In this document: positions 2,997-29,064 of the stretch, in pieces | How positions within the stretch are numbered: position 1 is the stretch's first letter | Layout: every line of letters starts with the position of its first letter | Source: Candidatus Micrarchaeota archaeon | Lineage (GTDB): Archaea; Micrarchaeota; Micrarchaeia; Micrarchaeales; Micrarchaeaceae | DNA: 64,000 nt | Assembly (NCBI GenBank): GCA_027345565.1 | Contig: DAHWIF010000005.1 | Location: 6,058 to 70,057 of the forward strand | Direction: 5' to 3' | Translations under genes and position numbers: made by a program | Notes under the pieces: generated by a model | What the model was told of the DNA's origin: nothing | What the model saw: only the letters and a program-made list of their open reading frames with translations | Databases searched by the model: none

Positions 2997-3064
2997 CCAA
3001 TCCCCGAATCAGCTATTCGGAGGAAAAGTATTAAAATATAGTTCAGCGTTGTTTTGTCAGAGCA

Positions 3065-13257: not shown

Positions 13258-13311
13258 GCGCAACTATATTGTTTGCTAACCTATTTTATAACTGTTGCCC
13301 AATTACTGCTG

Positions 13312-14004
13312 ATGATGCGCGAGAATACCTCATGGCATATAGAGGTCAGGGACATTATCATAGCAGACCTGGTGCTTATCATAGCTATGGCGCTCACCCT
13401 CTCCGGTGGCATATTCGGCGCCAGCAATTCGAAGTTCGCCGGCAACTTCCTGCTCCTCCTCCCGATCGCTGCGATAGGCGTGACGCTGAGTTTCGTCCTC
13501 CACGAGCTGATGCACAAGTTCGTAGCGCAGCACTACGGTGCGATAGCCGGCTTCCGCACTTCGTTCATGGGCCTCGGCATAACCCTTGCTACGGGCGCGT
13601 TCGGCTTCCTCCTCGGCATACCTGGGGCTACGATGATATACGCCCACAACTTCACTAGGAGGGAGAACGGGATAGTATCGCTCGCAGGCCCTCTCACGAA
13701 TTTTGTCGTGTTCGGAGCGTCGCTCGCACTCTTTTACATCCTTGCACCTCCAGCAGGCTCTTACCTGGGCGAGGCGCTCTACTTCACAATCTTCATAAGC
13801 ATACTCCTTGCCTTCTTCAACATGCTGCCTATATTCCCGCTTGATGGCAGCAAGGTGCTTGCGTGGAGCGCACCGGTCTACCTCGCCACCATAGGCACGA
13901 TATTCGTGCTCATGCTGATATTTACACCGATACCGCTCTCGACAATAATATTCATGCTGGTAATAGCCCTTTTCTTTTCGCTGTTTTACAGGCGCGCATT
14001 CTAG
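13312..14004 (+). CDS. Site-2 protease family (peptidase M50) intramembrane metalloprotease
   Basis: Motifs HELMHKF (HExxH) and NMLPIFPLDGSKV (NxxPxxxLDG) sit in a polytopic membrane protein. The ORF opens at TTG 13273, but ATG 13312 fits a TATA-like CTATTTTATAA at 13281-13291. Confidence 0.8.
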   Translation: MMRENTSWHIEVRDIIIADLVLIIAMALTLSGGIFGASNSKFAGNFLLLLPIAAIGVTLSFVLHELMHKFVAQHYGAIAGFRTSFMGLGITLATGAFGFLLGIPGATMIYAHNFTRRENGIVSLAGPLTNFVVFGASLALFYILAPPAGSYLGEALYFTIFISILLAFFNMLPIFPLDGSKVLAWSAPVYLATIGTIFVLMLIFTPIPLSTIIFMLVIALFFSLFYRRAF

Positions 14005-14051: not shown

Positions 14052-15332
14052 ATGGCGGAGAACGCTGCACCATCGACGAAGACGACGATAGATTCCCTGG
14101 TAGAGCTTCTCAAGAAGAAGGGGAAGATGGACCTTGCTTCGGTGTCCGTAGCCCTCGGAGTTGACCAGGCGATAGTGGAGAACTGGGCGAAGGTGCTTGA
14201 GAAGGGCAACATAGTAAAGATCACTTATGAAGTAGGGAAGATGTTCCTCACCATACCGACGCTCTCCGCGGAGCAAGAGGCGACAGAGCGCTCAAAGATA
14301 GAGGCGGGGATTTCGGGGCTGACGGCGCAGAGCGAGTCGCAGATGCTTTCCCTCGACAAGCTCACAGAGGCGCTAGAATCGATAAAAGGGTCTGTTGCAA
14401 CCGCGGAGAAGGCCGAGACCAGCGAGATGCCGGAAATACGCCGCGCGATAGCCGATCTCAACACAATATACGCAACGGTTGAGCAGAGGAATAGGGGACT
14501 TGAGCAGATGGCGAAGAAAGCCGAGCAGATATATGATGAGATAAACAAGAAGGTCACCGAGCTCAGCACAAGGCTTGGCGGCATAAGCGGCGAAGGGAGC
14601 ACGAAGGGAGTCGACGATGCCAGGCAGGAGCTTGCATCCATATCGAAATCGATCGCAAGCGTAAACTCAGAGATATCCGCGGTTGGCAAGAGCAGTTCCG
14701 AATCTATGGACCAGATAAGAAGGAGCGTGATAGAGCAGTCCAAGGCGCTGGAGAGGCAGATAGAGCAGTCTAAGAAGGAGATGAATGCTAAGCTTAGTGA
14801 ATACGCAAAACAGGCGGATGCCATAGAGAGCCAGCTCAAGGACCGGGTCAGGGCCATAAGCTCCAGCGTGGACGAGCTGAACAGTTTCTCCAAGGAGCGG
14901 GAGAAGCAGCTGCGCAGGCTGCGCGATTCCAGGGTCGAATTCAACGATTATTATGTGAAGATGAGCGAGGAGCTCAAAGCACAGAGGGCGTCGGCCGATG
15001 CGATATCAAAAGAGGTGGGTGAGAAGGTTGCGAAGCTGAAGGCGGGTTTCGGCGAAGCCGCAGAGATCGATGACACTCTTAGCACGTTGAAGAGCCAGAT
15101 GGCTGGCCTGGAGAAGGAGATAGCAGACGCGCGCCAGGATGTAACTGACATAATAAACAAGCTGCGCGCCTTAAACGCGCTCTCATCAGCGCCCACCGGG
15201 CAGGAGATGGCTGCGCTGAGCACCCTGCAGAAACGGGCATCAGCTGCAAGGTCAAAGGTCTCCAACATAAATGATAAAGTGGAGAACGCCAGGTCGGCCG
15301 CGAGCAAGATAGCTGAAAAGAAAAAGAAGTAG
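14052..15332 (+). CDS. wHTH-like N-terminal domain plus long coiled-coil protein; first gene of the filament biogenesis operon
   Basis: The N-terminus is IDSLVELLKKKGKMDLASVSVALGVDQAIVENWAKVLEKGNIVKITY. It is followed by about 350 aa of E/K/A/S-rich heptad-like sequence. A TATA-like GTATTAAAGG lies about 30 nt upstream. Confidence 0.65.
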   Translation: MAENAAPSTKTTIDSLVELLKKKGKMDLASVSVALGVDQAIVENWAKVLEKGNIVKITYEVGKMFLTIPTLSAEQEATERSKIEAGISGLTAQSESQMLSLDKLTEALESIKGSVATAEKAETSEMPEIRRAIADLNTIYATVEQRNRGLEQMAKKAEQIYDEINKKVTELSTRLGGISGEGSTKGVDDARQELASISKSIASVNSEISAVGKSSSESMDQIRRSVIEQSKALERQIEQSKKEMNAKLSEYAKQADAIESQLKDRVRAISSSVDELNSFSKEREKQLRRLRDSRVEFNDYYVKMSEELKAQRASADAISKEVGEKVAKLKAGFGEAAEIDDTLSTLKSQMAGLEKEIADARQDVTDIINKLRALNALSSAPTGQEMAALSTLQKRASAARSKVSNINDKVENARSAASKIAEKKKK

Positions 15333-15342
15333 GTAGGTTTGA

Positions 15343-16842
15343 TTGGAGCAAAAAGACGCCGAAAAGGTTCTTGCCGAGTACAGCCTTAATGCGAACGGCA
15401 TGCCGATAAATGTAAGGATAGCACAGACTGCGGATTACGTACCGATATACAACATGAGCATACCAGGCCTGAGCGACCCTACCAAACTACTCCTCTTCTC
15501 ACTAAGGGGTGAGCTTGTCGCAATGGTGACGGTTGACACCACGCGCATACAGGACAGGAAATATCTAGAGGAGGTAAACAGAAAGTACATCGAGACAAGC
15601 AGCACACTGATAGACAAGTACCTGCCAGCCACCCCAACCGAAACAAAATCGCTACTGATCGCCTATATAATAAACATGATGCTGGGCCTCGGGGACCTCG
15701 AGGCCCCGCTGGCCGATGACAACCTTGAGGAGATAACGGTCAACGGCGCTGCGAACATGATATGGGTGTTCCACAAGCAGTTTGGTTGGTGCAAGACAAA
15801 CATGAAGCTGGCCAACGAGGAGATGATATACGACTACGCCGAGCAGATAGGAAGGCGGGTCGGCAGGGAGATAAACAACCTATCTCCGCTCATGGATGCA
15901 GTGCTGCCTGACGGATCTAGGATGAACGCCACGCTCTACCCAGTGTCGCAAGTCGGCAACACCATAACGATAAGGAAGTTCGCGAAGAATCCGTGGACGA
16001 TGCCAGCTATGATTAAGAACCAGACAGTGAGCTCAGAGATAGGCGCGGTGGTGTGGTTGTGCATACAGAACGAGATAAGCCTTCTGATATCAGGGGGTAC
16101 CGCGAGCGGCAAGACCAGCCTGCTCAACTCCTCAAGCATTTTCTTTCCGCCGAGCCACAGGGTTGTGTCTGTCGAGGAGACCAGAGAGCTCACCCTGCCG
16201 AGCTTCCTCCAATGGGTGCCCATGGTCACCAGGCAGCCTAATCCAGAAGGCAAGGGAGAGGTGACACTTTACGACCTTACAATAAACGCGCTTAGGCAGA
16301 GGCCGGATATAGTCGTCGTTGGGGAGATAAGGGTCAAGAAGGATGCTGAGACCCTCTTCGAAGCGATACACACTGGCCACGCGGTGTACGGCACTGTGCA
16401 CGCGGACAATGCGCAGGATACGATAGTGAGGCTGACAAACCCCCCGATAGAGGTCCCGAAGATAATGCTGAACGCGCTTGGCGCCGTCATGGTCGCATTC
16501 AGGCACAGGAATAAGGGCATAAGGCGCATACTCGAATACGGTGAAGTGCTTAGGAGCGGGGATGTCAACGTGCTGTACAAATGGAGCCCGAGGAGCGACA
16601 GTTTTCCGCAGATAGGGGACATGACGAGGCTTGCCGACACGCTGATGCTGTATTCGGGGTACACCGCGAAGGAGATAGACGACGACATTGTGGAGAAGAT
16701 GTCCATACTCGACTGGATGGTGAAGAATGATGTCGTGTCTGTGGACGACGCTGGATTCGTAGTCGCCAACTATTACAAGAACAAGGACAAGGTTTTGGGC
16801 ATAGTGAGGGATAATGCAGCATTTTCAAGGGATATATTTTAA
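15343..16842 (+). CDS. Type II/IV secretion-family ATPase (archaeal FlaI/PilB/EpdL/TadA-like)
   Basis: Walker A GGTASGKTSLLN, Walker B/Asp box RPDIVVVGEIRVKKDAE and His box HTGHAVYGTVHAD are present. The start is TTG, 10 nt after the upstream stop. Confidence 0.9.
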   Translation: MEQKDAEKVLAEYSLNANGMPINVRIAQTADYVPIYNMSIPGLSDPTKLLLFSLRGELVAMVTVDTTRIQDRKYLEEVNRKYIETSSTLIDKYLPATPTETKSLLIAYIINMMLGLGDLEAPLADDNLEEITVNGAANMIWVFHKQFGWCKTNMKLANEEMIYDYAEQIGRRVGREINNLSPLMDAVLPDGSRMNATLYPVSQVGNTITIRKFAKNPWTMPAMIKNQTVSSEIGAVVWLCIQNEISLLISGGTASGKTSLLNSSSIFFPPSHRVVSVEETRELTLPSFLQWVPMVTRQPNPEGKGEVTLYDLTINALRQRPDIVVVGEIRVKKDAETLFEAIHTGHAVYGTVHADNAQDTIVRLTNPPIEVPKIMLNALGAVMVAFRHRNKGIRRILEYGEVLRSGDVNVLYKWSPRSDSFPQIGDMTRLADTLMLYSGYTAKEIDDDIVEKMSILDWMVKNDVVSVDDAGFVVANYYKNKDKVLGIVRDNAAFSRDIF

Positions 16843-16849
16843 CAACGTG

Positions 16850-18095
16850 AGCGGGAAATCCCACACCATTCATGGGTGGGATGAAAGCGAACCGCAGATA
16901 AGCATATAAAGATAAATTGGGATAAAAACAGAGGAACAAAAGGGAATGTGATGAACAGGGCATACAAATTCAGGATATATCCGACAAAATCTCAAGAGAA
17001 CGAAATGGATACTCACAGGTGGATTTCAAAGAACCTATGGAACGAGATGCTTGCATTCTGCAAGGAGACATACGAGAAGACAGGAAAGTTCCCGAACAGG
17101 AACCAATTGCAGATAATGACGAAACAGAAGGGCATGTATTCGCAGTCTTCGCAGGATATATCTCATAGGTTGGTGAAATCATTATGGACGTTCATTCAGC
17201 TTCGGAAAAAGGGAAAGAAAGCCGGTTTCCCAAGGTTTAGGAACATCGATAGGTCAAAATCAATTTATTACCCTCAATCTGGATTCTGGTTGGGCAAGAA
17301 ACTGAAGGTAACTCCCTTCGGTGAGATAAAGATAATAAAACACAGGGAGGTTGAAGGGCAGATAAAAACTCTGTCATTGAAACGTGAATCTGCTGGACGA
17401 TGGTATGCTGTATTCACCTCAGAACTTCCTGATATAGAACTCAAGCCAAATGGAAAGGGAAAGGTAGGAATGGATTTGGGGCTGAAGACATTTGCTACAT
17501 TGTCAAATGGGATAAAGATAAACAATCCTCGTCATGTAAAGAAATACGAAAGGAAACTTGCGATATGGCAAAGAAGAATGTCAAAAAGGGAAAAAGGAAG
17601 CCATAATAGGTGGAAGCAGAAACAGAAGGTAGCAATGCTGTACGAGAAGGTTTCCAACGTAAGAAAGGATTTTCAACATAAACTATCAAATCAATTCGTA
17701 AATTCATATTCATTGATTGCATTGGAGAAACTACAGTCAAAGAATATGGCACAGCAAAGATACGGAAAGTGGATAAATGACGCTGGATGGAATTCATTTG
17801 CAAACATGCTGACATACAAGGCTGAAAGTGCTGGGTGTCAGGTCGTATTCGTGAGTCCAGAGAATACGTCAAAGACGTGCCATGTCTGTGGGAACATGCA
17901 GGACATGCCTCTCAACGAAAGGACATATAATTGCGAGAGGTGCATGTCGGTAACGGACAGGGACATAAATGCATCTATAAATATACTTACAAAAGCTACT
18001 CTGGGACACAGAGGAAGTAACGCTTGTGGAGATGGCAAAAATGTTGTCTAAGAAGCAAGAAGCCCACACCCTTCAGGGGCGGGAGTATGTCACTG
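16850..18095 (+). mobile_element. TnpB-only IS200/IS605-family (IS1341-like) element
   Basis: A tnpB ORF is flanked by two related subterminal hairpins in direct orientation. The left one is ATCCCACACCATTCATGGGTGGGAT at 16858-16882. The right one is CCCACACCCTTCAGGGGCGGG at 18063-18083. No tnpA is present. The region is visibly more AT-rich than its flanks, and the exact ends are not determinable by eye. Confidence 0.7.
16951..18051 (+). CDS. tnpB: TnpB/OrfB RNA-guided endonuclease (IS605 OrfB family)
   Basis: The N-terminus MNRAYKFRIYPTKSQENEM is classic for OrfB. The protein also has GMDLGLK (RuvC-I Asp), a zinc finger CHVCG..x..CERC, and DRDINASINIL (RuvC-III). Confidence 0.9.
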   Translation: MNRAYKFRIYPTKSQENEMDTHRWISKNLWNEMLAFCKETYEKTGKFPNRNQLQIMTKQKGMYSQSSQDISHRLVKSLWTFIQLRKKGKKAGFPRFRNIDRSKSIYYPQSGFWLGKKLKVTPFGEIKIIKHREVEGQIKTLSLKRESAGRWYAVFTSELPDIELKPNGKGKVGMDLGLKTFATLSNGIKINNPRHVKKYERKLAIWQRRMSKREKGSHNRWKQKQKVAMLYEKVSNVRKDFQHKLSNQFVNSYSLIALEKLQSKNMAQQRYGKWINDAGWNSFANMLTYKAESAGCQVVFVSPENTSKTCHVCGNMQDMPLNERTYNCERCMSVTDRDINASINILTKATLGHRGSNACGDGKNVV

Positions 18096-18122
18096 GTTGT
18101 CCTCGTTTATAACTGTGGTTAT

Positions 18123-18821
18123 ATGGCTGACCAAGCAGCAGAGAGCGCGTACACCAAGCTGCTGAAGCAGATAGAGCAGATTGAGGGTGCGGTCAGCGCT
18201 GTAGGGAGCGCAGCTATAGACATATCCGGCAGCTTCGCCAATGCACCAGGCAGGAAAGCACCGTCATATAGGGATATGCTTGTTAAGATAAATGAGATAG
18301 AGAAAAGTAAAGCAAGGGTGCCGAAGGCCGCTCCTGCTGTACAGGCAGCTGCTCCGCAAGCAGCGCAGCCAGTTGCCCCACAAGTGCAGGTGCAACAGGT
18401 GAAGCAGGAGGAGCTTGCACAGCTGCCAACAGAGCGGAAAGAGGGGACAAACGTATATGCGGGTAAGGAGCTTGCCGAGCTTGTAAGATCCCTGCCTGTA
18501 AAGATACCGAAAGTTGGCAAGCACAAATTGAAGAGAGAGAAGGATGCGAACCTTGTGCTGCCTAACCTTTCGCTGGTGGACCAGGTCGCTGAGCTGGAGC
18601 GCATACTCGATGCTATAAATGCCAAGGCGCTGCACGGTGACGAGCTAGATATGGTGGCCAGCGAGCTATACGGGCTCGTGGAGCGGGTCAATGCTGAGAA
18701 GAAGCAGCTAAAGAAGGGCAGGTCGTCAAATGCTGACGATTACCAGCTCCTGGAGCTTCGAGACCAGAGGATAGAGGCTGTGGCAGCCGCGCTAACGGAT
18801 GCAGAGAAAGCAGGTGAATGA
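18123..18821 (+). CDS. A/Q/P-rich, partly coiled-coil hypothetical protein in the filament operon
   Basis: The ORF opens at 18024 inside tnpB. The first ATG outside the IS element is at 18123 (MADQAAESAYTKLLKQ). Low-complexity AAPAVQAAAPQAAQPVAPQVQVQQVKQEE is present. Confidence 0.55.
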   Translation: MADQAAESAYTKLLKQIEQIEGAVSAVGSAAIDISGSFANAPGRKAPSYRDMLVKINEIEKSKARVPKAAPAVQAAAPQAAQPVAPQVQVQQVKQEELAQLPTERKEGTNVYAGKELAELVRSLPVKIPKVGKHKLKREKDANLVLPNLSLVDQVAELERILDAINAKALHGDELDMVASELYGLVERVNAEKKQLKKGRSSNADDYQLLELRDQRIEAVAAALTDAEKAGE

Positions 18822-19940
18822 TTGGGGCTTTTCAAGAAAAAAGAAATCAAAGTGATAAACGTTGAGGGCAGGAGGATAGAGCTCCAGCCTAAGCCGAAGA
18901 GAGGGCTGTCTGCGCTGTTCGGCGGAGGTGTCACGAAGCGGCAACCGAAGCCGCAGCAAATCGTTGGACCTGCTGCCCAGCCACAGAGTCCTGCTTCGCA
19001 GCCGCAACAGAGACCTGCCCCTCAGCCGGTGCAGCATGCGGAAAAGCCGGTGCAGCCGCAACAGGCGCAGCAGCAGGCGCAGAAAAAAACGCAGAGCCGC
19101 ACGCCGGCCGCGTGGCGGCACCACATAGAGAAGCTAGCGATAAAGAACAGGAAGATAGAGACTATGCTGCAGCAGAGGCGCATGGGTGTGAGCCTCTACG
19201 ATTTCATACAGCGCATGTTAATAGCCTCGATAATAGTTGCGGTCGTCATTGCGGCAACGATGCTGCTCGTCCTTGTGAGGGCTGGGGTGGTGCTGCCTGC
19301 AGCGCTAGTTCTCGCAGTACTGATAGGCTACGCGGTGAACAGGTTCGCGTTCAACTCTTTCCTGAGATATCCGCTCAGGAACGAGGAGATAGCGGCTAAG
19401 AACATAGAGCGCGACATACTGTTTGCAGCTAGGAACATGATAATATCGTTAAGGTCCGGCATGCCGCTCTACAATGCGATAGTCTCTGTAAGCTCCGGAT
19501 ATGGCGACGCCAGCAGGGAATTTGCGAAGGTGACCGAGAGGTCCAACCTCGGCATGTCGCTTGAGGAGGCTGTAGACCAGACGGTATCGGAGAGTAAGAG
19601 CCAGTCATTCAGGAGGATAATGCTTCAGGTATCCGCTAGCATAAAGGCCGGGGCGGATATAGTGTCGTCGCTGCAGAGCGTGACTGACCAGCTGTCAGAA
19701 GAGCGCATGATATCGCTCAGAAGGTACGGGCAGAGGCTGAACGCGATAGCGATGTTCTACATGCTCTTCGGCGTGATACTGCCTAGCATGGGTATAGCGA
19801 TAGCCACCATACTCACCACCTTCATATCCGTGTTCACTGTCAACGACGCGCTGCTCGAAGCCGCGATAGTCGGTATAGTCTTCCTGCAGTTGATATTCCT
19901 GCAATTGATAAGGTCATCGAGGCCTGTATTCGCACTGTGA
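18822..19940 (+). CDS. Single-domain T2SS-F family membrane protein (TadB/EpdJ-like platform protein)
   Basis: It has one T2SSF-like domain (ARNMIISLRSGMPLYNAIVSVSSGYGDASREFAKV..GMSLEEAVDQ) and flanking TM helices. The N-terminal ~110 aa are P/Q-rich. The start is TTG, preceded by the SD-like AGGTGA. Confidence 0.8.
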   Translation: MGLFKKKEIKVINVEGRRIELQPKPKRGLSALFGGGVTKRQPKPQQIVGPAAQPQSPASQPQQRPAPQPVQHAEKPVQPQQAQQQAQKKTQSRTPAAWRHHIEKLAIKNRKIETMLQQRRMGVSLYDFIQRMLIASIIVAVVIAATMLLVLVRAGVVLPAALVLAVLIGYAVNRFAFNSFLRYPLRNEEIAAKNIERDILFAARNMIISLRSGMPLYNAIVSVSSGYGDASREFAKVTERSNLGMSLEEAVDQTVSESKSQSFRRIMLQVSASIKAGADIVSSLQSVTDQLSEERMISLRRYGQRLNAIAMFYMLFGVILPSMGIAIATILTTFISVFTVNDALLEAAIVGIVFLQLIFLQLIRSSRPVFAL

Positions 19941-19944
19941 TGCC

Positions 19945-20940
19945 ATGGCTATAAATTTTGAGAGGCTTGTCTCGCGCGGCCTGGCCATAAGGGTCTCCAG
20001 AGAGATGGACCTTGCGGGAGTGAAAAGCAGCGTAAACCGCATACTAGGCATCGCAATAATCGGCGCGCTGGCAATACTCATAATTATCTCCTTCCTGCTC
20101 GCCATCTCGCACACCACCGCCGCGTCTCTCGCCTTCGTCATCGGCGCAGGCACTGCGGCGTTCTATATAGCCATCATATACGTATTTCTTGAGTATAGGA
20201 TAGACAAGAGGCGCATGGGCATGGAGAGCATGCTGCCCGACTACCTGCAGATCGCATCAGCGAACCTGAGGAGCGGACTCTCCCTGGACAGGGCGATGAT
20301 GATTGCGGCGAGGCCAGAGTTCACGTTCTTCTCAAACGACATAAAGGACATGTCAAGGAGGGTGTTCGGCGGCGAGACGCTTGCGAATGCCCTGAGTGGA
20401 GTCGCTGTGAAGTACCGATCAAGGCAGCTCAACCACACTGTCAAGATGATCACCGAGTCGCTGCGTTACGGCGGTGCAATGGCGGACCTGCTCGACCAGG
20501 TAAGCAAGGACATACGCGGCCAGCAGATGATCCAGAAGGAGGTGTCGAGCCAGCTCTTCATGTACAGCATATTCATAGCGTTTGCTGGCATAATAGCTGC
20601 GCCGGTGCTCTACGGGCTGACAGGGCAGATGATAAGCGTCACTGATACCGTATGGAAGGGCATACTCGCTGCCAACCCAGGCGGTCTTCCGACGATAGGC
20701 GTGTCGTTCCTTAAACCATCACCGCCGCAAATAAGCATAGCTACTTACAGGTACTTCTCAATCGCAGCCATAATCGTGATAACGGGTTTCGCAGGGCTGA
20801 TAATGTCTGCGATATCTACAGGATCGGCTATGCGGGGCATAAAGTATCTTCCTCTGTTCATACTCGGCGGCCTAGGAATATATCTGATCATAGCGAAGCT
20901 CATAGCAGGCCTTTTCGCAGGCATCACTCCCGCAGCATGA
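19945..20940 (+). CDS. Single-domain T2SS-F family membrane protein (TadC/EpdK-like platform protein)
   Basis: The T2SSF-like domain reads LPDYLQIASANLRSGLSLDRAMMIAA..GETLANALSGVAV..ITESLRYGGAMADLLDQV, with N- and C-terminal TM helices. Confidence 0.8.
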   Translation: MAINFERLVSRGLAIRVSREMDLAGVKSSVNRILGIAIIGALAILIIISFLLAISHTTAASLAFVIGAGTAAFYIAIIYVFLEYRIDKRRMGMESMLPDYLQIASANLRSGLSLDRAMMIAARPEFTFFSNDIKDMSRRVFGGETLANALSGVAVKYRSRQLNHTVKMITESLRYGGAMADLLDQVSKDIRGQQMIQKEVSSQLFMYSIFIAFAGIIAAPVLYGLTGQMISVTDTVWKGILAANPGGLPTIGVSFLKPSPPQISIATYRYFSIAAIIVITGFAGLIMSAISTGSAMRGIKYLPLFILGGLGIYLIIAKLIAGLFAGITPAA

Positions 20941-23562
20941 TCATGTCGGTACAATCGATGCGCCGCACACTCCGTTTATCATGCTTGCGACCGTGCATGA
21001 CCCGGAAGAATTGCTTATGTAGCCGTTGTTGTTTCCTATTACATCATGCGTCTGGTTAAGCATTCCCTGGTATGGCACCGAGAGCGGCCAGTATGATACT
21101 GGGGTCATGCCGCTCACGCTGTTGTTCAGGTAAAGGCTCTGCACCTGGCTAGCATTCATGGCATTCGCGTATATCTGTATGTCTGCGGCATCGCCAATGA
21201 GATTCTGGCCCGCGCTGTTGCCGTATCCTATCTGGACCCCTGTGTTCTGGTTTGATACCGAAAACGGGTCGCTCAGTACGTTAGCTCCGTCAACATATAT
21301 GGTTTCTGTGCCTCCGGATATGACTGCCGTCATGAAATACCATTCGTTCGTGCTAAGCGACGTCGATGATTTGAATTCCGTGGCGTTTATCCAGTCGTAA
21401 AAGCAGGGGTTTATGGAGCTGCCGCATGCGCCTACGCCCCATGCATCCTCCTTCGCCACCAGCCAGCCCAAAGTGCTCGGCGCGGCTGCATAGTCCACCC
21501 AGCCAGATATCGTGAGCGGCGATGGTAGCTGCAACGCCGCAACGTTAGGCACCTGCACGTATGCATCGTTTGTGAAAGCCATGGCGCTAGGCACGCTCCC
21601 GTTAGTGACACCTAGCGCTCCAGCCTCGCTCTGCGCGGTTCCGCCCCGTGCTGCAAGCACGCGCGGACCCAAATAAAGGTGGCTTAGCGTGATGTTGCCG
21701 CACTGGTTCAGGTTGGCGCAGTTGAGCACGCCTTTCACCACGCTTGCATTGTAAAGGTTTGGCATGTTGGGGAATACAGGATCGGAAATGTATCCTGCCA
21801 TTTTGGTATACATCATATTCTGCGCTGTGCCGTTGTTGTTCTCTCCTGAATAATCGTTCGCGTTGCCGTTGAGCGGCCACCACCCGGCTAGGCTTGCGTT
21901 GGAGAGCGGCGTGCCATCCAGGCCATTGATGTAGAGCCGGGACACCTGGGCTGGCGAGAGCGCAGTTGTATAGATTTGCACATTTGCTATGTTGCCGGAG
22001 AAATAGAGGCCCCACACCTGCTCATACCCTATGATGGTGTTGCCAAGTCCGGACAACGGGGAGGATGCCGAGCCTGAGCTGTATGTCGGCCCTGGGGATG
22101 CCACTCCATCCACATATATCTTGAAGTCGGAAGGCGACACAGAGGTGCCTGACGGCGCATAGAATGTTCCGACTATCAAGTGCCATTTGCCGTTGTTCAC
22201 CGCCCTATTTGCGTTCAGCAGCTGTATTACGTTGTTACTGTCCAGCAGCACCGCCGGGGTGCCTGCTGTTGAGCCGCTGCAATAGCTACCAGGGCTGCCG
22301 CATGAAGGGCCTACAGCGAGGGTTATGCTTTGACCGGCCCCGCTTCCCCTGTCACTGACAACTGCTCCCTGCGACGCGGTTGTCTTCACCCACGCTGCAA
22401 TCGTGTAGGCGGTGACAGAGTTCTGCACGTACGGGACGGACACATAGCTGCTTGCGCCGTTGAATTGTGCATATCTGGTGTTAATGGCGCCAAGGCTGAA
22501 CGAGCCCTGCCCTGATCCCACAGATCCTTGCTGTTGCGACTGCTGCAGGTATGAGGGAGCGCCAGATGCCTGATAATAGTAGCCGTTCTGGATGCCTGTC
22601 TTCACCCGGGCGAGGTTCAGCAGGGCCAGTGCAGAGCCGTCAAGCAGCACAGATGTGCCGTTGCCTATCACGTTAGGGGATATGAAATCAGATGGATATA
22701 CCAGGTAAGGGAAGAGCGGTGTCAGCGACCCCAATGAATTTGTGACCAAGCCGCCCATGCTGCATATGTTCGAAGAGAGTGAGCCGGCATCAGGGGTGAC
22801 AAGTATGTAGTTTGCATTCTGGAATCCTGACGGCACGTTGCTGCATGTCGGCGTGCCACCTATGTATACGGCGGTGCCGTATGCGAACATGAACGGGCTC
22901 CTGCTCCCAGACAGCGCGCTCGTATTCCCTATCATGGTCTGTGGCTGTGCCGCGCCAGTCACGTAAGATGTGACGCCTCTCTCCGCGCCAAGCAGGCTCC
23001 GTGTCCCGTTTATGCTTACGTTGGCTGTAGATGAGATGGGGTAGTTGATTATTCCGGTGCTGAGGTTCAGAGTCACAAGGTCTGTCAGCCTGGCGGTGAG
23101 GTTCAGCGGCGCTCCCTGGTAGACGCTGATTGACAGGTTGCTGATAGTGAAGCTGCCGCCCTGCAGCGACGCCAGTCCCTGCAGCGCAGAGGTGTAGTTG
23201 ACTAGCATGGCCCCTCCCATGTACGATAGCATATTAGTTCCGTATATCGTCCCGTTGTCCATCAGGCTTGCCAGAGCATATGCGGTGTTGTTTATGAAAT
23301 GGTACTTCCTCAATGATGGTGTGGATTCGTACACTGTAAGCGCGTTAAGCGAATTATTCAGGCTAGCCGCCAGGAAGCTGCCAGAACCGCTGCTTATGAA
23401 GCCCAGCAGCACAGAGGAGCTGAACGCAGCAGATGTGGCGGAAGTGAGATGGTCGTAGCTGATGCTTATATCCACATAACTTGAAAGCTCGCCAAGCATG
23501 AGTATGAATAGGACAAGCATTGCCAGCGTAAGCAGTACCCCCTTCTTGTTCTTCATCTCCAT
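20941..23562 (-). CDS. Prepilin-like N-terminus plus multi-LamG/concanavalin-like secreted protein (873 aa)
   Basis: The N-terminus is MEMKNKKG|VLLTLAMLVLFILML. LamG_3-type cores are present (QFNGASSYVSVP..AYTIAAWVKT) together with the linkers AGWWPLNGNANDYSGENNNG and SYWPLSVPYQG. It is the last gene of a four-gene minus-strand operon and overlaps the upstream gene by 10 nt. Confidence 0.8.
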   Translation of the reverse strand: MEMKNKKGVLLTLAMLVLFILMLGELSSYVDISISYDHLTSATSAAFSSSVLLGFISSGSGSFLAASLNNSLNALTVYESTPSLRKYHFINNTAYALASLMDNGTIYGTNMLSYMGGAMLVNYTSALQGLASLQGGSFTISNLSISVYQGAPLNLTARLTDLVTLNLSTGIINYPISSTANVSINGTRSLLGAERGVTSYVTGAAQPQTMIGNTSALSGSRSPFMFAYGTAVYIGGTPTCSNVPSGFQNANYILVTPDAGSLSSNICSMGGLVTNSLGSLTPLFPYLVYPSDFISPNVIGNGTSVLLDGSALALLNLARVKTGIQNGYYYQASGAPSYLQQSQQQGSVGSGQGSFSLGAINTRYAQFNGASSYVSVPYVQNSVTAYTIAAWVKTTASQGAVVSDRGSGAGQSITLAVGPSCGSPGSYCSGSTAGTPAVLLDSNNVIQLLNANRAVNNGKWHLIVGTFYAPSGTSVSPSDFKIYVDGVASPGPTYSSGSASSPLSGLGNTIIGYEQVWGLYFSGNIANVQIYTTALSPAQVSRLYINGLDGTPLSNASLAGWWPLNGNANDYSGENNNGTAQNMMYTKMAGYISDPVFPNMPNLYNASVVKGVLNCANLNQCGNITLSHLYLGPRVLAARGGTAQSEAGALGVTNGSVPSAMAFTNDAYVQVPNVAALQLPSPLTISGWVDYAAAPSTLGWLVAKEDAWGVGACGSSINPCFYDWINATEFKSSTSLSTNEWYFMTAVISGGTETIYVDGANVLSDPFSVSNQNTGVQIGYGNSAGQNLIGDAADIQIYANAMNASQVQSLYLNNSVSGMTPVSYWPLSVPYQGMLNQTHDVIGNNNGYISNSSGSCTVASMINGVCGASIVPT

Positions 23563-25727
23563 AATACCACGCTAACGTTGTATAGAGGCGCATTCGCGCT
23601 GGCGCTGATGCTCATCGGGAACGCCGCGGCGCTGACCTGATAAGCTGCGCTGAGTGACGGCGGAGTGAAGTTCACTCTTGCGTATGTAACGCCTGAAGGA
23701 TATCCGATGTTGCCGTTGCCGCTGTAGTCGTTGGTGTCGCCAAGCAGGGGCCACCACCCCGCTATGGTGGAGTTCACCGGCAGGCCGGCGATGCCCTCGT
23801 CGTAAAGCGCTGTTATGCCCTGCTGTTGGAGCGGCACGGCATATATCTGCAGGTCCGAGATCGTCCCGTTGAACGGCAGGCCGCTCCCGCTGGCGTCGTT
23901 GCCTATGCCGAGGTTGTTGTTGTCGAACGATATCATGTTTGTCGTATTGAAAGAGCCTATAAGCGAAGCATTTACATAGATGCTCGCCTTGTTCGTAACG
24001 GAGCTCCATACAGCAGTGATGTAGTACCATCTGTTGGCTGCGGGTTTGAACGACACCTCGTAGGAGCAGCCCCAGAAGTTGGAGGCCATGAAGAGGAGCC
24101 CGTAAGCAGTGCCGCAGCCGTTGGCGTTGCTGCCTATGTACTCCAACGCGTAGTCGTTAGTCTTGTTAACGATCGCCTGCGTGTCAGGATACGCATTGGA
24201 GTTGAAGCGCACCCATGCCGATATCGTTATGCCGGTGTTTGGCGAGTCGAGCGATGCGGAGCTCGGCACGCTGACATAGCTGTTTATGCCGTTGAACTGC
24301 GCCAGGTGAAGCGACGGCGCATACGTGCCGTTTATGTATACGCCGATGTTGGGGGTGCTGTACGAGCTGTTGAGTAGGCTTGTTGCACACCCCCCATAGC
24401 CATTCACGTACATGCTTGCTATCGCCTGCAGCACGCTGCCTCCAGGCACAGCTCTGCACGTGCCGAATACGTATACGGTATTGCCGGCAGATACGTATGC
24501 GTTGCCATTGGCGAGCGCCACATCCTGGAATAGAGCAGAGCTGGATTGCGGCAGCGTAGTGTCCCATACCGGGGAGCTGTTGTCCGATAGCTTATATGAC
24601 AGGAAATGGTCGTTCGCCGCCAGCATATAGAAGGCTCCAGCCGTGGATGACGGCGTGGAATTTGATAGCGTGCTCTCTATGTGGAATTGCTTCGTGGTGC
24701 AGCCGCAGCTGACGTTTATCTGCCATACGTTGGTCTGCATCGGGAAGTAGATGTTGCCGCCCTCAAGCGTTCCGCCGCCGAATGAGCTTACCCCGGGTAT
24801 GTTTATCGACCAGAGCTGGAGCCCGCTCATGCTGAGCCCGACTATCTGGTTTGCGCTGCCGATTACTATGAGATTGCCCGCTATCAACGGAGTGGTTGAT
24901 GTCGTTATGGACCACGTGTAGCTCCAGATCTGCTGCAATGCGCCTCCGACTACGGCAAAGCCCAGTACGTAGTTTTGGGATGCCGGAGCGCTGGTGCTGA
25001 CTATGAACTCGCCTGAGCCGTACGCTGGCACGGTTGCTATGTTGGGCAGCGATTTGTGGAAGAAGCTGCCGTTAATCGGGCTCATTAGCACTACGTTGGC
25101 TTGGGCGCCGAACGCGATATAGCCGCCGCCCAGGGACATCGGCGTCGACTGCGCAGAAGGCAGCTGTGTAGACTTCCAGCTGAGCGAGCCGTTCCTCTGC
25201 ACCGCGGAGACATAGCCTGTGGAGTTGCCGTATATTATCATGTTGTTGTAGATTATCGGGTAGAGTACATTACCGTAGACCGCCTTGCTCAGGATCGGGC
25301 TGCCTGTCGTGGCGTTTATCACATACAGGGTGTTGCCTGATGCAAATGCAGCCATGCCGTAGCCTACAGACACAGGAGAGCTTATCGGACCGCTTGCCGT
25401 GTGGGTGAAGAGGAGCTGCGGAAGCTGCGGCCCCACAGAGGACGATGCTGCGAGCGGGCCTCCGTTGCCGAACGACTGCCATGTGCTTGCGGAGCCTAGA
25501 GTCGCGTTCGCTGCGGCCATCGCATAGAGTGACCCCGCGTCGGCAGCCACCGTCAGCCCTGTCCCCATGAGGCTCTGTGCGACGCTGAACGCCTGCGAGG
25601 TCAGCGGCTGGAATACCGGTGTGCCTGCGAAGTGCACATACGCGAGTATGCCTATGGCCGCTCCTGCAACTATCAGCGAGAACGCCGCATCGATCGTGAA
25701 AACGAATCCCTTGACATTTTGTCCCAT
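23553..25727 (-). CDS. Prepilin-like N-terminus plus PQQ-like beta-propeller plus C-terminal LamG domain (724 aa)
   Basis: The start MGQNVKG|FVFTIDAAFSLIVAGAAIGILAY shares one nt with the upstream stop (TGATG). Repeats such as GNTLYVINATTGSPILS, GYVSAVQRNGSLSWKS, NQIVGLSMSGLQLWSI and GNTVYVFG are typical of PQQ/BamB-like propeller blades. The LamG region has AQFNGINSYVSVP and AGWWPLLGDTNDYSGNGNIG. Confidence 0.75.
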   Translation of the reverse strand: MGQNVKGFVFTIDAAFSLIVAGAAIGILAYVHFAGTPVFQPLTSQAFSVAQSLMGTGLTVAADAGSLYAMAAANATLGSASTWQSFGNGGPLAASSSVGPQLPQLLFTHTASGPISSPVSVGYGMAAFASGNTLYVINATTGSPILSKAVYGNVLYPIIYNNMIIYGNSTGYVSAVQRNGSLSWKSTQLPSAQSTPMSLGGGYIAFGAQANVVLMSPINGSFFHKSLPNIATVPAYGSGEFIVSTSAPASQNYVLGFAVVGGALQQIWSYTWSITTSTTPLIAGNLIVIGSANQIVGLSMSGLQLWSINIPGVSSFGGGTLEGGNIYFPMQTNVWQINVSCGCTTKQFHIESTLSNSTPSSTAGAFYMLAANDHFLSYKLSDNSSPVWDTTLPQSSSALFQDVALANGNAYVSAGNTVYVFGTCRAVPGGSVLQAIASMYVNGYGGCATSLLNSSYSTPNIGVYINGTYAPSLHLAQFNGINSYVSVPSSASLDSPNTGITISAWVRFNSNAYPDTQAIVNKTNDYALEYIGSNANGCGTAYGLLFMASNFWGCSYEVSFKPAANRWYYITAVWSSVTNKASIYVNASLIGSFNTTNMISFDNNNLGIGNDASGSGLPFNGTISDLQIYAVPLQQQGITALYDEGIAGLPVNSTIAGWWPLLGDTNDYSGNGNIGYPSGVTYARVNFTPPSLSAAYQVSAAAFPMSISASANAPLYNVSVVLWR

Positions 25728-26269
25728 CAGCTCACCGACGATACGCTGCCGCTCCACACCATCACCGTTATCTGCGCAGCCTCTCCGTTTATGAATGCAC
25801 TCTTCCTGCTTATGTAAGTCGTTACAGAGTTGCCTGTCAGCGGGCTCCTGCCCATCGTTATATTGAGCGTGCTGCTGTTTATGATTATATAGTAGTTGAA
25901 GCTCGTGCCTAGGTCCTGCCCTGCCATAGAGTAGTTGTAATCCACCATTGACATCAGCGCGTACATCTTCGCGGCCGAGAGGCTTGGAGACCCCTGTGAC
26001 TGTGCAAGCCCTATCCCTATATCGCCCCAGGTGCTTACTGACGATGTGTTGACCGCAGACTGCCAGTCCGCAGGACTTCCTGTAGACATTAGGTTCTGCG
26101 CCACGGCTTCCGACTGAAGCTGCATTATGTAGCTGGTCCCGCCTGTAGCAAGCGAAAGCTGGTTGCTTATGTCAAGCCATGCGATTGCCAATATCGTTAT
26201 CGCCGCCAGGAATATTATCATTGCGAAGAGCGCGTCAAAGCTCCAGAACTGTGCCCTAAAATTGTCCAA
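25727..26269 (-). CDS. Small pilin-like protein (180 aa, class III signal peptide)
   Basis: The TTG start gives MDNFRA|QFWSFDALFAMIIFLAAITILAIAW. An SD-like GGGTGAT lies 7 nt upstream. Its size and architecture fit a structural pilin. Confidence 0.7.
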   Translation of the reverse strand: MDNFRAQFWSFDALFAMIIFLAAITILAIAWLDISNQLSLATGGTSYIMQLQSEAVAQNLMSTGSPADWQSAVNTSSVSTWGDIGIGLAQSQGSPSLSAAKMYALMSMVDYNYSMAGQDLGTSFNYYIIINSSTLNITMGRSPLTGNSVTTYISRKSAFINGEAAQITVMVWSGSVSSVS

Positions 26270-26275
26270 TCATAA

Positions 26276-28972
26276 TCACCCTAGCGTTGTATCAAGGCCT
26301 ACGGCCCGCGGCATGCCCTGCAGGTAGAGCTGTTGTATCTGGTATTGTGAAAGCGATGTATTGTATATCTGCGCATCCGCAACCCCGGCAGTGCAGCTTC
26401 CGATAGACCAACTTGACTGCTGCAGGTTCTGCGTTGTTGATAAGGACAGCGTATTCGAGACTCCGTCCAGCGACACGGCGTACTTGCCGTTAGAATAGCC
26501 GAGCGTAACGAAGCTCCATCTGTTTAGGGGCACACTGAGCTGGCTGTATACCGGGGTTTGAACGCTGGTAGCCGTGCTGGCACCGAGATATCCGCTCTGA
26601 TTTATAATGAGATTGAATCCGTCACCATCTGCGCCCTGGCTCCCAATGGACGCCACGTAGCATAAAGAGACTGAATTGAAGCTGATCGGGTATACCCACG
26701 CAGCGACAGTCTTCGGTCCGGATCCGAGTATGGAGTTAGGTGCGTCTGGTATATCCACACCGGTTCCTTGGAAGGAGAACGCGGCAAGCTGCTGGCCCAC
26801 TTTAGCAGTGTTGTTGTAGCTTATTGAGTTGAATGCCACATCTATCGCATTTGATGATGCGTATGCATGGTTTGCATAGTTGTTCGCGTTGCCATTTAGC
26901 GGCCACCAGGCTTGGATGCCCTGGCCCTGCAGCGGTACAGAGGTCAGGCCTTGGGAATACATTGTTGCTACCTGGCCCGCAGTGAGCGACCCATTGTATA
27001 TCTGCACGTTGGCTATCGTCCCGTTGAAGACGTAATTTAGTCCGGAGTATTCCCCTATATACTCCTCGGATGAGCTTCCTGGAGCTATCGCTGTGCGGTA
27101 GCTTCCTGCGAGGGTGCCGTTCACATATATGTCAAGCACGTTGCCGTTATATGTGCCTGCAACGAAATACCATGTGTTGAGATTAGGCGTTGTCGGATCA
27201 CAGACCCTCAGTGTGTTTACCCCTATCTTAAACATATATGCAGTCGGGTTGCTCACCTGGTTATCACAGTTCGAATCGCTTTCAAGAAGCATGATGTGAT
27301 TATTGCTTACCGGGTTCCCGCTCTCTATGACTTCGTTCTTGTAGCTGTTCAGGTGCACCCATGCGGCTATGGTGAAGTAAGGGAGGCTGAGCCCTGCTGA
27401 TTGTATGAAGCTGGTTGCTCCGTTGAAATTTGCTGCGTTGAATGCGGTGTTCGATGTGACCGGCAGGTACACCGCCTTAGCCTGTCCGGTCCCTATCACA
27501 AGAGAGCCGACGTCCCCCTTGCCGCTGAAGTCAGGCACGCTCAATCCATCGTTTACGCTAAGCGGCCACCACCCCGCCAGGTCGTTTGCCGTGGTAAGGT
27601 TCCCATTGAATGGTTCCGCGTATATCGTAGCATTGCCCGAGAAACCGTTAGCCGTAAGCAGCGTGCTCTGCTGCCCGGTCGATGTGGTGTTGGCTGCCAC
27701 GCTGTTAGAACCGCCAAGCAGGTAGTTTGAGGTGAAGAAGCCCATCGGCACATGCGGAGCCGCCACGCCTCCAAGTGTTGATACGCTGGCCAGCGTGTCC
27801 ACCGAGTACTGATACGATATATCATTCGCCGCCCCGTTGTTGCCGTAGCCGCTGTAATCGTTCGCGTTGCCGTTGAGCGGCCACCATCCCACCAGGTTGC
27901 CAAGGCTAGCCGGAGGCGCGGCGGCCGGCCCCAGCGAGTATATCTGGCCGATCTGGTTTGCAGGCAGCGAGGCGTTGTAGATCTGCGCGTTTATCACATA
28001 TCCGTTAAGGTAAGTGGCGTTCGCGGGCGATCCTCCTATTATCACATTGGCAGACCCTGTTATGCTTACTCCTGGGCTGGATGTGGCTACCGACAATCCA
28101 TCGACGTACAGCTCCGCAATCCCAGAGCTCTTGTTATACGTTGCAGCTATATCGTACAGAGCGCCAGGGACTATCGAGTTCTGGCCGATTAGCTTAAACG
28201 CCCCTCCCCAGTTTATCAGGAATATCGGGGCGCCGCCGTTCGTTATTGAAAGCATGAATGGCTGCGCCGCAGCGCTAATCTCACCGATTACTGGGTTGTC
28301 GAGATAGGGCGTTGTTGAACCTGTATTCAGGCTTTTCAGCTCAACCCACGCATCGAGCGTTATGCTGTTGCCTATCGTGAGTACGCTGTTTGACTGGACG
28401 CTGATCAAGCTGTTTGCTCCGTTGAAATACGGTGCAGCAACGGAGCCTGGCTGCGAAAGCACAGGCGGCCCGGCTAGGCTCGCAGGCTGTGGGGATGGGA
28501 CATCGATGAATATGCTGCCGCCAGCATTCGCCACCTTGACATAGCCGGTATAGATAGGTATCCTGTATACGTTTATCCCGTTGCCGCTAGATACGAGCGT
28601 GCCGTTTATGTAGAGGTTGCGCGCGCTGCTCTGGGCTATTCCGGTTATGATTTCCTTCCCAACCGTCGTATTGGCTATTACTAGCCCTGTTGTTGATATC
28701 GATATGTTATAAGATACAAGGCCTATGCCAGCGCTTAGCGGCACGAATGCGGAATAGCCGCTGCCGGCCTGCAGCGCCTGGTTTATGTAGCTCGCTACGC
28801 TCTGGGATATGAGCTGCATTACAGATGCCTGTTGCGCAGCGAGCGCAACCGATCTCTCGTTCGCTATCAGGGCGAATACAACAATGAATACAATCAGCAC
28901 TATTGCATATATTATCATGAATTCTAGAGCTATCTGCGACCTCGCGCCAGCATGCCGCCACCGCCCCCCCAT
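26276..28972 (-). CDS. Prepilin-like N-terminus plus triple LamG/concanavalin-like array (898 aa)
   Basis: The ORF opens at 29056, but ATG 28972 gives MGGRWRHAGARS|QIALEFMIIYAIVLIVFIVVFALI (Q at +1, E at +5) and leaves a 92-nt divergent promoter region. There are three WWPL linkers: VGWWPLNGNANDYSGYGNNG, AGWWPLSVNDGLSVPDFSGKGDVG and QAWWPLNGNANNYANH. Confidence 0.8.
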   Translation of the reverse strand: MGGRWRHAGARSQIALEFMIIYAIVLIVFIVVFALIANERSVALAAQQASVMQLISQSVASYINQALQAGSGYSAFVPLSAGIGLVSYNISISTTGLVIANTTVGKEIITGIAQSSARNLYINGTLVSSGNGINVYRIPIYTGYVKVANAGGSIFIDVPSPQPASLAGPPVLSQPGSVAAPYFNGANSLISVQSNSVLTIGNSITLDAWVELKSLNTGSTTPYLDNPVIGEISAAAQPFMLSITNGGAPIFLINWGGAFKLIGQNSIVPGALYDIAATYNKSSGIAELYVDGLSVATSSPGVSITGSANVIIGGSPANATYLNGYVINAQIYNASLPANQIGQIYSLGPAAAPPASLGNLVGWWPLNGNANDYSGYGNNGAANDISYQYSVDTLASVSTLGGVAAPHVPMGFFTSNYLLGGSNSVAANTTSTGQQSTLLTANGFSGNATIYAEPFNGNLTTANDLAGWWPLSVNDGLSVPDFSGKGDVGSLVIGTGQAKAVYLPVTSNTAFNAANFNGATSFIQSAGLSLPYFTIAAWVHLNSYKNEVIESGNPVSNNHIMLLESDSNCDNQVSNPTAYMFKIGVNTLRVCDPTTPNLNTWYFVAGTYNGNVLDIYVNGTLAGSYRTAIAPGSSSEEYIGEYSGLNYVFNGTIANVQIYNGSLTAGQVATMYSQGLTSVPLQGQGIQAWWPLNGNANNYANHAYASSNAIDVAFNSISYNNTAKVGQQLAAFSFQGTGVDIPDAPNSILGSGPKTVAAWVYPISFNSVSLCYVASIGSQGADGDGFNLIINQSGYLGASTATSVQTPVYSQLSVPLNRWSFVTLGYSNGKYAVSLDGVSNTLSLSTTQNLQQSSWSIGSCTAGVADAQIYNTSLSQYQIQQLYLQGMPRAVGLDTTLG

Positions 28973-28997
28973 TGAACCTTCTACTAAATCAATGGCA

Positions 28998-29044
28998 AAT
29001 AATAAATAGTCTTGTTGGGACGCAGAAGGAATCAGAATAAATAG
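28998..29044. promoter_or_regulatory. Divergent promoter pair: two AATAAATAG TATA-like boxes
   Basis: AATAATAAATAG at 28998-29009 lies 26 nt from the minus-strand ATG at 28972. AATAAATAG at 29036-29044 lies 21 nt from the plus-strand ATG at 29065. Both arrangements imply leaderless transcripts. Confidence 0.4.
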
Positions 29045-29064
29045 TTTGGCTGCCATAAAGCATC

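Follow-up and report, generated by a model that had tools for sequence, protein, structure and literature searches.

In bacterial PilC/PilY1 proteins, a C-terminal beta-propeller is the shared carrier that docks on a complex of minor pilins, and the modules at the N terminus vary (Raynaud et al. 2021, PMC8179133). Bacterial modular pilins, among them PilB (pilin plus vWA) and PilC (pilin plus a concanavalin-like lectin) of Streptococcus sanguinis as well as CofB/TcpB and GspK, join a pilin N terminus to bulky modules (PMC8179133, PMC9934059). Their predicted place is the filament tip, their genes accompany those of other minor pilins, and their module content varies greatly (PMC8179133; PMC9934059); a survey that used the bacterial signature IPR012902 found them to be widespread in bacteria (PMC8179133). 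Here we describe P3, a 724-amino-acid protein encoded in a 64,000-nucleotide stretch of DNA (the window: contig DAHWIF010000005.1 of assembly GCA_027345565.1, positions 6,058 to 70,057) from a Candidatus Micrarchaeota archaeon in a mine-drainage metagenome. P3 joins a prepilin-like N terminus to an eight-bladed beta-propeller and a LamG domain, and we favor, with moderate confidence, the view that it belongs to a pilus-like system conserved across Micrarchaeota. In this view, P3 is a modular type IV pilin-like protein with a class III signal peptide, in which the propeller and LamG domain would be outward-facing, ligand-binding modules.

The DUF2341 domain belongs to the LamG/concanavalin superfamily. 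Large DUF2341 proteins with class III signals have been proposed to be PilY-like components at the pilus tip in archaeal clade 1 (Makarova et al. 2016, PMC4858521). The Epd pilus of Methanococcus has one ATPase and two TadC-like proteins (EpdJ/K/L) and the EppA-processed pilins EpdA to EpdE (PMC4371748). In the cultured micrarchaeon Mia14, MIA14_0170 was described as an ATPase, 0172 and 0173 as TadC proteins, and 0176 as a secreted pilus component, and LamG proteins were linked to pilus loci (Golyshina et al., PMC5498576). The authors assigned the 0170-0177 locus to a Methanococci/Thermococci-type system and reported one FlaK-like peptidase (PMC5498576). With LamG proteins at Micrarchaeota pilus loci and PilY-like archaeal adhesins both already proposed, P3 is a variant of known designs.

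Architecture and family of P3

The minus-strand open reading frame (ORF) of P3 ends at 23553 and has two possible starts, ATG at 25727 or GTG at 25757, the latter adding 10 amino acids. The ATG shares 1 nucleotide with the stop codon of the upstream gene, P180 (TGATG; ...AGC TGATGG...), and P873, the downstream gene, has its second Met codon in an ATGA that contains the P3 stop codon. These overlaps with both neighbors make the 724-amino-acid product a sensible gene model.

P3 homologs are full-length, and the 20 that were aligned share 30 to 89% identity overall. An exhaustive profile search covering 1.84 billion representatives gave at least ~75 clusters at 50% identity with a full-length, single-stretch match among the best 150 matches listed, as well as variants of ~910 to 935 and ~590 to 620 amino acids. 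Because of these full-length matches and length variants, we conclude that the P3 family is sizeable and modular. A profile-based repeat (alignment A1) of the word-indexed protein search neither enlarged the family nor gave any informative name. The family is previously unannotated, and its members are called "hypothetical protein" wherever the source names one.

An earlier note on this DNA had proposed that P3 consists of three parts, a prepilin-like N terminus, a propeller of the PQQ/BamB type, and a LamG domain, and this architecture is borne out by Pfam, AlphaFold2 (AF2), and Foldseek. Pfam places PQQ_2 at residues 110 to 221 (E 1.9e-9; 37.9 bits versus a gathering cutoff of 27.6) and Laminin_G_3 at residues 480 to 638 (E 1.9e-20; profile positions 2 to 150 of 151). 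In the 20-member alignment, both domains were matched in 18 members, PQQ_2 above its gathering score. Blade-like strings of the kind that had suggested a propeller recur eight times in P3 at a spacing of ~40 residues (near 122, 161, 201, 239, 284, 323, 363, and 407). The AF2 model, built from the 20-sequence alignment (mean predicted local distance difference test score [pLDDT], 69.8), has 32 strands within residues 104 to 422, which form eight four-stranded blades at a pLDDT of 85 to 92.

A Foldseek comparison of the model with the PDB confirmed that the predicted fold is a propeller of the BamB kind. Eight-bladed BamB structures matched with template modeling (TM) scores of 0.71 to 0.78 on the target and E values of ~1e-15 (e.g., 8orr, TM 0.76, root mean square deviation 3.1), and the designed eight-bladed propellers Tako8 and Cake8 matched with TM scores of 0.83 to 0.85 (E ~1e-15). 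A sequence profile search of the PDB agreed with this division, as PQQ-type designer propellers and BamB matched residues ~100 to 420 and lectin-like jelly-roll domains matched residues 477 to 647 (E ~1e-7). Most invariant positions of the propeller hold Gly, Asn, Trp, or Tyr, as is usual at structural positions of a blade. The Ca-binding loop raised in the earlier note has no counterpart here: no acidic Ca-site motif (DxDxD, DxDxNG, or EF-like) was found in the propeller, whose 325 residues include only 4 Asp and 3 Glu. P3 thus matches BamB/PQQ_2 eight-bladed propellers in fold and repeat signature, but its propeller sits as one module within a pilin-like surface protein, and P3 does not have the outer membrane biogenesis role of BamB because archaea have no outer membrane.

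In the C-terminal half of the model, the jelly-roll (LamG) region is of low confidence and includes a poorly predicted stretch (residues 512 to 558), and the terminal strands reach residue 723. Weak matches to NCBIfam TafC, a haloarchaeal Tat-fimbriae model (E 2e-3 to 2e-10, far under the cutoff), reflect shared LamG-like sequence. Two further parts of P3 had not been described in the earlier note, a helical linker at residues 426 to 470, with helices in the model at 432 to 455, and a conserved C-terminal segment of 70 amino acids. This segment ends in an invariant YNVSVVxW(R/K), and W658, P660, L661, G663, N666, G670, V718, V720, V721, and W723 are invariant in the 20-member alignment. Its first 30 residues recur after every LamG domain of P873 and of P926, another neighboring gene product, and the remainder is specific to P3. 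A W(W/Y)PL.G(N/D).NDYSG motif follows each LamG domain of P873, P926, and P3.

An exchangeable propeller on a conserved core

A scan of one genome per species gave 64 loci, whose six-frame ORFs were searched with the proteins of the window. Sub-profiles of six P3 regions were then searched against all ORFs of these loci, in which 59 complete proteins occupy the P3 position. A propeller and a LamG domain are present in 44 of the 59; in 11, a second LamG domain stands in the place of the propeller (573 to 612 amino acids), and 4 have neither the propeller nor a second LamG domain (377 to 401 amino acids). The N terminus, the helical linker, one LamG domain, and the 70-amino-acid C terminus are kept in all 59, the linker thus also in orthologs that lack the propeller. 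Therefore, the propeller is a replaceable passenger, while the pilin-like N terminus, linker, LamG domain, and C terminus are the conserved core of P3. The module types are partly clade specific, and at least 4 switches are needed to explain their distribution on a rough neighbor-joining tree of the locus ATPases drawn without support values.

Sequence conservation is also uneven along the protein. Mean pairwise identity by region is 52% in the N terminus, 55% in the linker, and 50% in the C terminus, versus 39% in the propeller and 29% in the LamG interior.

Since its carrier is a pilin-like N terminus and its propeller is a variable passenger, the closest concept for P3 is the modular pilin, which applies at the level of architecture. 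P3 differs from the bacterial modular pilins in that it is archaeal, lacks the N-methylation motif IPR012902, combines a propeller with a LamG domain in 724 amino acids, and is known here from its sequence.

The flanking subunits are modular too, as orthologs of P873 carry from 1 to at least 3 LamG units and range from 412 to 1547 amino acids. In another micrarchaeon (locus L017), two tandem proteins of 285 to 297 amino acids, encoded at 2894-3787 and 3846-4703 (+) just upstream of the conserved cassette, have an N terminus KSQSAMEYLMTYGWAILI... followed by one LamG domain and are small modular LamG pilins. This pair shows that the pilin-plus-LamG design has been used repeatedly in Micrarchaeota.

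The N terminus of P3 and its relationship to pilins

P3 begins with a short basic leader followed by ~25 hydrophobic residues, MGQNVKG/FVFTIDAAFSLIVAGAAIGILAYV, where the slash marks the predicted cleavage site and the mature protein would start FVFTIDAAF... In the alignment of 20 homologs, in which identity goes down to 30%, K6, G7, F8, F10, T11, D13, A14, F16, L18, and A21 are invariant. The motif across ~60 species-level genomes is [KR]G/F[IV]FT[LIV]DAxF[AS]L[IV]. Judged by its sequence, the N terminus is built like archaeal class III (prepilin) signals, with a short basic leader, Gly/Ala at -1, and a hydrophobic helix. The archaeal processing sites KGIS, KAIS, and KGQV have been characterized experimentally (PMC4371748), and the predicted cleavage site of P3 resembles the KGIS/KGQV-type sites tabulated there.

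A relationship to a protein of ordinary pilin size was found within the locus itself. When the P180 and P3 families were compared by hhalign, database alignments gave a probability of 84% (E 7.5e-6, ~100 columns), and alignments of ~60 sequences from the related loci gave a probability of 95.5% (E 1.5e-8, 49 columns). These profile alignments indicate that P3 and P180 are homologous at their N termini, over the first ~50 to 100 residues. The AF2 model of P180 (pLDDT 85) consists of a 58-residue N-terminal helix and a 4-stranded sheet, the "lollipop" of classic pilin topology.

Gene neighborhood and its conservation

The 64 loci each belong to a different species-level genome; by the labels of the metagenome-assembled genome records, nearly all are Micrarchaeota, three are Marsarchaeota, and one is a "bacterium." Their gene order is invariant, with a Ski2/Hel308-type helicase followed by P926, P180, P3, and P873 on one strand, so that P3 is always accompanied by its three prepilin-like partners. 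Convergent to this four-gene set are genes for two TadC-like proteins, an unknown protein of ~240 amino acids, a FlaI/TadA-type ATPase, and a coiled-coil protein, and these are present in every locus that extends far enough (Table 1). P926, P180, P3, and P873 are four translationally coupled prepilin-like genes, of which P3 is the third.

Table 1. Features of P3 and its locus, with positions in the window (a slash marks a predicted cleavage site)
Feature	Position	Strand	Basis or remark
P3, modular prepilin-like protein, 724 amino acids	23553..25727	-	ORF; overlaps with both neighbors; full-length homolog family
P3 leader peptide MGQNVKG, predicted prepilin peptidase cut after G7	25707..25727	-	Invariant [KR]-G/F; cleavage predicted
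P3 hydrophobic alpha-1 helix and following helical region, residues 8-111	25395..25706	-	Homologous to N-terminal part of P180 by profile alignment
P3 eight-bladed PQQ_2/BamB-like beta-propeller, residues ~101-425, variable passenger module	24453..25427	-	Pfam, AF2, Foldseek
P3 conserved two-helix linker, residues 426-470 (TCRA..LQAIA.MY..G.GGCA..LLNSSY)	24318..24452	-	Region of highest identity, 55%
P3 LamG/concanavalin-like jelly-roll domain, residues ~471-652	23772..24317	-	Pfam Laminin_G_3; most variable sequence in P3 (29%)
P3 conserved C-terminal beta segment, residues 653-724 (WWPL.GD.NDYSG ... YNVSVVxWR), and stop codon	23553..23771	-	Invariant residues; 50% identity
P180, pilin-like protein, 180 amino acids, N terminus [KR][AG]/QFWSFD..FA	25727..26269	-	Alignment A2; AF2
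P926, prepilin-like, three LamG domains, N terminus [KR][AGS]/QIALEF	26276..29056	-	Pfam Laminin_G_3 x3; likely start internal Met 28972
P873, prepilin-like, two LamG domains, N terminus KKG/VLLTL	20941..23562	-	Likely start ATG 23556, overlapping P3 stop as ATGA
Two TadC/T2SSF-type platform protein genes	18822-19940, 19945-20940	+	Pfam T2SSF, E ~2e-15 each; in all complete loci
FlaI/TadA/VirB11-family secretion ATPase	15343..16842	+	NCBIfam FlaI 262 bits, TadA 170 bits, both under equivalog cutoffs; conserved in related loci
Coiled-coil protein, 426 amino acids, at locus end	14052..15332	+	Coiled-coil-type NCBIfam matches only; in all complete loci
Soluble Ala/Gln/Lys-rich protein, ~240 amino acids, between ATPase and platform genes	18084..18821	+	No Pfam match; syntenic in ~50 loci
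TnpB-type insertion interrupting the locus, not part of the system	16864..18062	+	TnpB ORF 16948-18051; absent from all 64 related loci

All four minus-strand proteins begin with a [KR][GAS]/ site and then a hydrophobic helix. The P926 motif (Q at +1, E at +5) is found in 59 species. It is of the type that marks EppA-processed pilins of the Methanococcus maripaludis Epd pilus, such as EpdA and EpdE, with the processing sites RAQI and KGQI (PMC4371748), and P180 shares its Q at +1. Across the related loci, the N terminus of P873 reads [KR]G/[IV]LLTL. An early acidic residue is at +5 (E) only in P926 and at +6 (D) in P3 and P180, and P873 has none. In bacterial tip complexes, the top subunit lacks E5. 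By analogy, and as speculation, the differences in acidic residues among the four N termini might reflect an order of assembly.

The Mia14 locus (ATPase, x, TadC, TadC, x, x, small secreted component, x) and the present one agree at each position, as judged by gene order. It is from this match to MIA14_0170-0177 that we infer, by analogy, a clade 1 affiliation of the ATPase. The locus is like Epd-type systems in having one ATPase and two TadC-like genes, Q at +1 in P926 and P180 (with E at +5 in P926 only), several class III signal proteins (some of them very large, with LamG-superfamily domains), and a major pilin that is not in the locus. It differs from clade 1 (Epd-type) systems in that its domains are Pfam Laminin_G_3 rather than DUF2341, and a propeller-bearing subunit is unmentioned in PMC4858521, PMC5498576, and PMC4371748.

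In the window, the conserved gene order is broken only by the TnpB-type element, which is of the IS200/605 type and separates the ATPase gene from the conserved gene that follows it. In one DNA contig from the source run, position 16863 is followed directly by 18063 at about half of the flanking depth, which indicates that the insertion is polymorphic in the population. The insertion may transcriptionally separate the ATPase gene from the downstream platform genes. The coiled-coil protein and the soluble protein of ~240 amino acids may be cytoplasmic assembly factors specific to this system.

Other genes of the window also encode possible surface or membrane proteins. An M50 (site-2 protease type) membrane metalloprotease is encoded directly upstream of the pilus locus at 13273-14004 (+); it is the only nearby membrane protease and is not a prepilin peptidase. 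A 2269-amino-acid protein rich in Ser, Thr, Gly, Asn, and Tyr (3065-9874, +), ~4 kb upstream of the pilus locus, has a signal-like helix at its N terminus, a transmembrane anchor at its C terminus, and a weak Ig_3 match as its sole Pfam match, and it may be a giant surface or S-layer protein. Outside the locus, a 503-amino-acid protein without a Pfam domain (19-1530, -) begins MAMKA/QNAMEFVFTYSIAITIITVAIAFV, an N terminus resembling an EppA/DUF361-type class III signal, and it could be a further pilin-like surface protein.

Proposed role of P3

That P3 is a surface-displayed adhesin, as the earlier note had suggested, is the most reasonable reading, and its gene lies in a type IV pilus-like archaeal locus. 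P3 is probably an adhesin and is a good candidate for host attachment. A binding role is in keeping with the exchange or absence of the propeller in 15 of 59 orthologs that retain the core, and with a LamG interior that is the least conserved region. The amino acid composition of P3 and its partners fits exposure to acid outside the cell. Charged residues make up 5% of P3 versus 15 to 32% of the ATPase, platform, and coiled-coil proteins of the locus; P3 has 17 N-glycosylation sequons versus the 10.8 expected from its composition, along with 6 Cys residues, and the other three prepilin-like proteins resemble it in composition.

We propose that a prepilin peptidase would cut P3 after Gly7 and that the adjacent ATPase and two TadC-like platform proteins would then extract its hydrophobic alpha-1 helix from the membrane. 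This helix would pack with the alpha-1 helices of P926, P180, and P873, and the resulting four-subunit complex could be a small assembly that caps or initiates a filament, the major pilin of which would be encoded elsewhere. The conserved N terminus, linker, LamG base, and C terminus would hold P3 in the complex, leaving the eight-bladed propeller and the hypervariable LamG loops to face outward and bind ligands. The likely ligands would be glycans or surface proteins of a host cell or of the biofilm matrix.

Several results weigh against the identification of P3 as a pilus subunit. No pilin or class III model of Pfam or NCBIfam matches the P3 N terminus, and when the isolated N-terminal 70 residues of five class III-like proteins were searched with Pfam, only P926 gave Class_IIIsignal, below threshold (E 0.02). 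Because no curated pilin profile matches, the membership of P3 among prepilin-like proteins rests on its motif, the conservation of that motif, the genomic context, and the homology to P180. The N-terminal part of the AF2 model of P3, with helices at residues 12 to 33 and 44 to 78, has low pLDDT. The Foldseek search of the P180 model against the PDB returned no significant solved pilin, only weak ribosomal uS3-like matches (best E 8e-3, none at or below 1e-3). Neither a prepilin peptidase gene nor a small major pilin gene was recognized in the 64-kb window by an ORF and transmembrane-helix scan with Pfam on selected ORFs; the ORFs with multiple transmembrane helices encode the M50 protease, a glycosyltransferase, and an unknown protein of 163 amino acids. 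Finally, the locus sequence was absent from 3 metatranscriptomes of the same study.

We also considered whether P3 (...YNVSVVLWR) and P180 (...ITVMVWS) are homologous at their C termini, as would be the case for a split pilin domain, and rejected this, the hhalign probability on C-terminal sub-alignments being <2%. The conserved C-terminal strands of P3 may contribute to its globular pilin module.

Alternative explanations

The main rival to a pilus subunit is a complex resembling the bindosome, for which the model case is the Sulfolobus sugar-binding proteins assembled by BasEF. P3 and its partners would then use class III signals, the ATPase, and the platform to build a short, nonfilamentous envelope complex, and P3 would not be at a pilus tip. 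In both systems, large functional proteins have a prepilin-type N terminus, and surface assembly is served by a PilB/PilC-like pair of their own (PMC4371748). Furthermore, three of the four subunits here are 4 to 5 times the size of an ordinary pilin, as PMC4371748 describes for bindosome subunits, and the ATPase is a weak match to BasE (125 bits). The lack of a recognized major pilin gene in the locus or window points the same way, but its absence from the locus says little because archaeal clade 1 major pilins are typically stand-alone genes elsewhere (PMC4858521). P180, moreover, is of ordinary pilin size and, in its model, of ordinary pilin topology. The domains of P3 are of adhesin and lectin types, a propeller and a LamG domain, rather than the substrate-binding proteins with an associated ABC transporter that characterize bindosomes, and no ABC transporter is linked to the P3 locus. 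We consider a bindosome-like complex unlikely.

A simpler explanation is that P3 is a plain membrane-anchored surface protein, whose signal anchor stays uncleaved and has no relation to pilins, and whose position beside pilus genes is incidental. The failure of curated pilin profiles to match the N terminus and the low model confidence at residues 1 to 42 are what this explanation would predict. Nevertheless, P3 has invariant residues near the predicted cleavage site and in the helix that a simple anchor would not need, and neither this conservation nor the homology of the N terminus to P180 (E 1.5e-8) is expected of a plain anchor. The overlaps of reading frames and the strict synteny with pilus machinery across 64 species also argue against an incidental position, and we regard a plain anchor as improbable.

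Slightly different in kind is the idea that P3 is a secreted or anchored enzyme whose propeller or LamG domain is catalytic (a dehydrogenase, a tetrathionate hydrolase-like enzyme, or a glycoside hydrolase) and whose N terminus merely targets it to the surface. PQQ_2 repeats do occur in enzymes, and an acidophile tetrathionate hydrolase is also among the Foldseek matches (6l8a, E ~5e-14), but the best matches are noncatalytic BamB and designed propellers. A propeller with only 7 acidic residues and with mostly structural invariant positions does not look catalytic, and it is absent or exchanged for a LamG domain in 15 of the 59 orthologs while the locus is unchanged, which makes an enzyme very improbable.

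The earlier note had also stated that PilY1 carries a propeller of the kind found in P3 and that P3 would be placed in or on the fiber without adaptor minor pilins. The second idea is not supported, given the co-conservation and translational coupling of P3 with three prepilin-like proteins in 64 genomes. As to the first, what survives is a loose likeness, in that PilY1/PilC proteins are likewise large, nonmajor components that are encoded with minor pilins, contain a beta-propeller, are presumed to be tip-exposed adhesins, and show modular variability. Their functional logic is inverted in P3, since PilY1 is not a pilin and its IPR008707 propeller is the carrier, while P3 has the pilin-like N terminus as its carrier and a BamB/PQQ-type propeller as its variable part, swapped or absent in some orthologs as noted above.

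Common descent, with the P3 propeller being a PilY1/PilC C-terminal domain transferred to an archaeon, is scarcely credible: the two share a propeller and a place in type IV pilus loci, which is resemblance only, and there is no PF05567/IPR008707 signal (only PQQ_2 and Beta-prop_ACSF4 in the 20 members at E values up to 1), no PilY1 structure among the PDB profile matches (E up to 1, best 60 of 69) or the top 50 Foldseek matches, eight BamB-type blades with no Ca-site motif, and an opposite domain order and assignment of carrier and passenger (PMC8179133).

Implications for Micrarchaeota

Micrarchaeota are cell-contact symbionts of wall-less Thermoplasmatales, and like other DPANN archaea, they depend on physical contact with the host cell. 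Two co-culture systems exist, Mancarchaeum with Cuniculiplasma and Micrarchaeum harzensis with Scheffleriplasma. Pili, LamG, and propellers go unmentioned in the paper on the second of these.

Beyond the role of P3 as a modular pilin-like subunit, a bolder and more doubtful proposal concerns the whole four-gene set. P926, P180, P3, and P873 may be the archaeal counterpart of the bacterial four-minor-pilin tip/priming complex, with three of the four subunits having become giant modular pilins in Micrarchaeota and exchangeable propeller/LamG cassettes setting which Thermoplasmatales host or surface glycan is bound. We put this forward tentatively, as one possibility. If it is true, module swaps in P3 (propeller, LamG, or none) would track host switches.

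The tempting equation of any pilus-linked propeller with PilY1 is corrected by the present analysis, and the modular pilin idea, surveyed so far only in bacteria, is extended to archaea. A four-gene cassette in 64 species-level genomes, with one position that holds an interchangeable putative binding module, provides concrete candidates for the molecules of host contact in Micrarchaeota.

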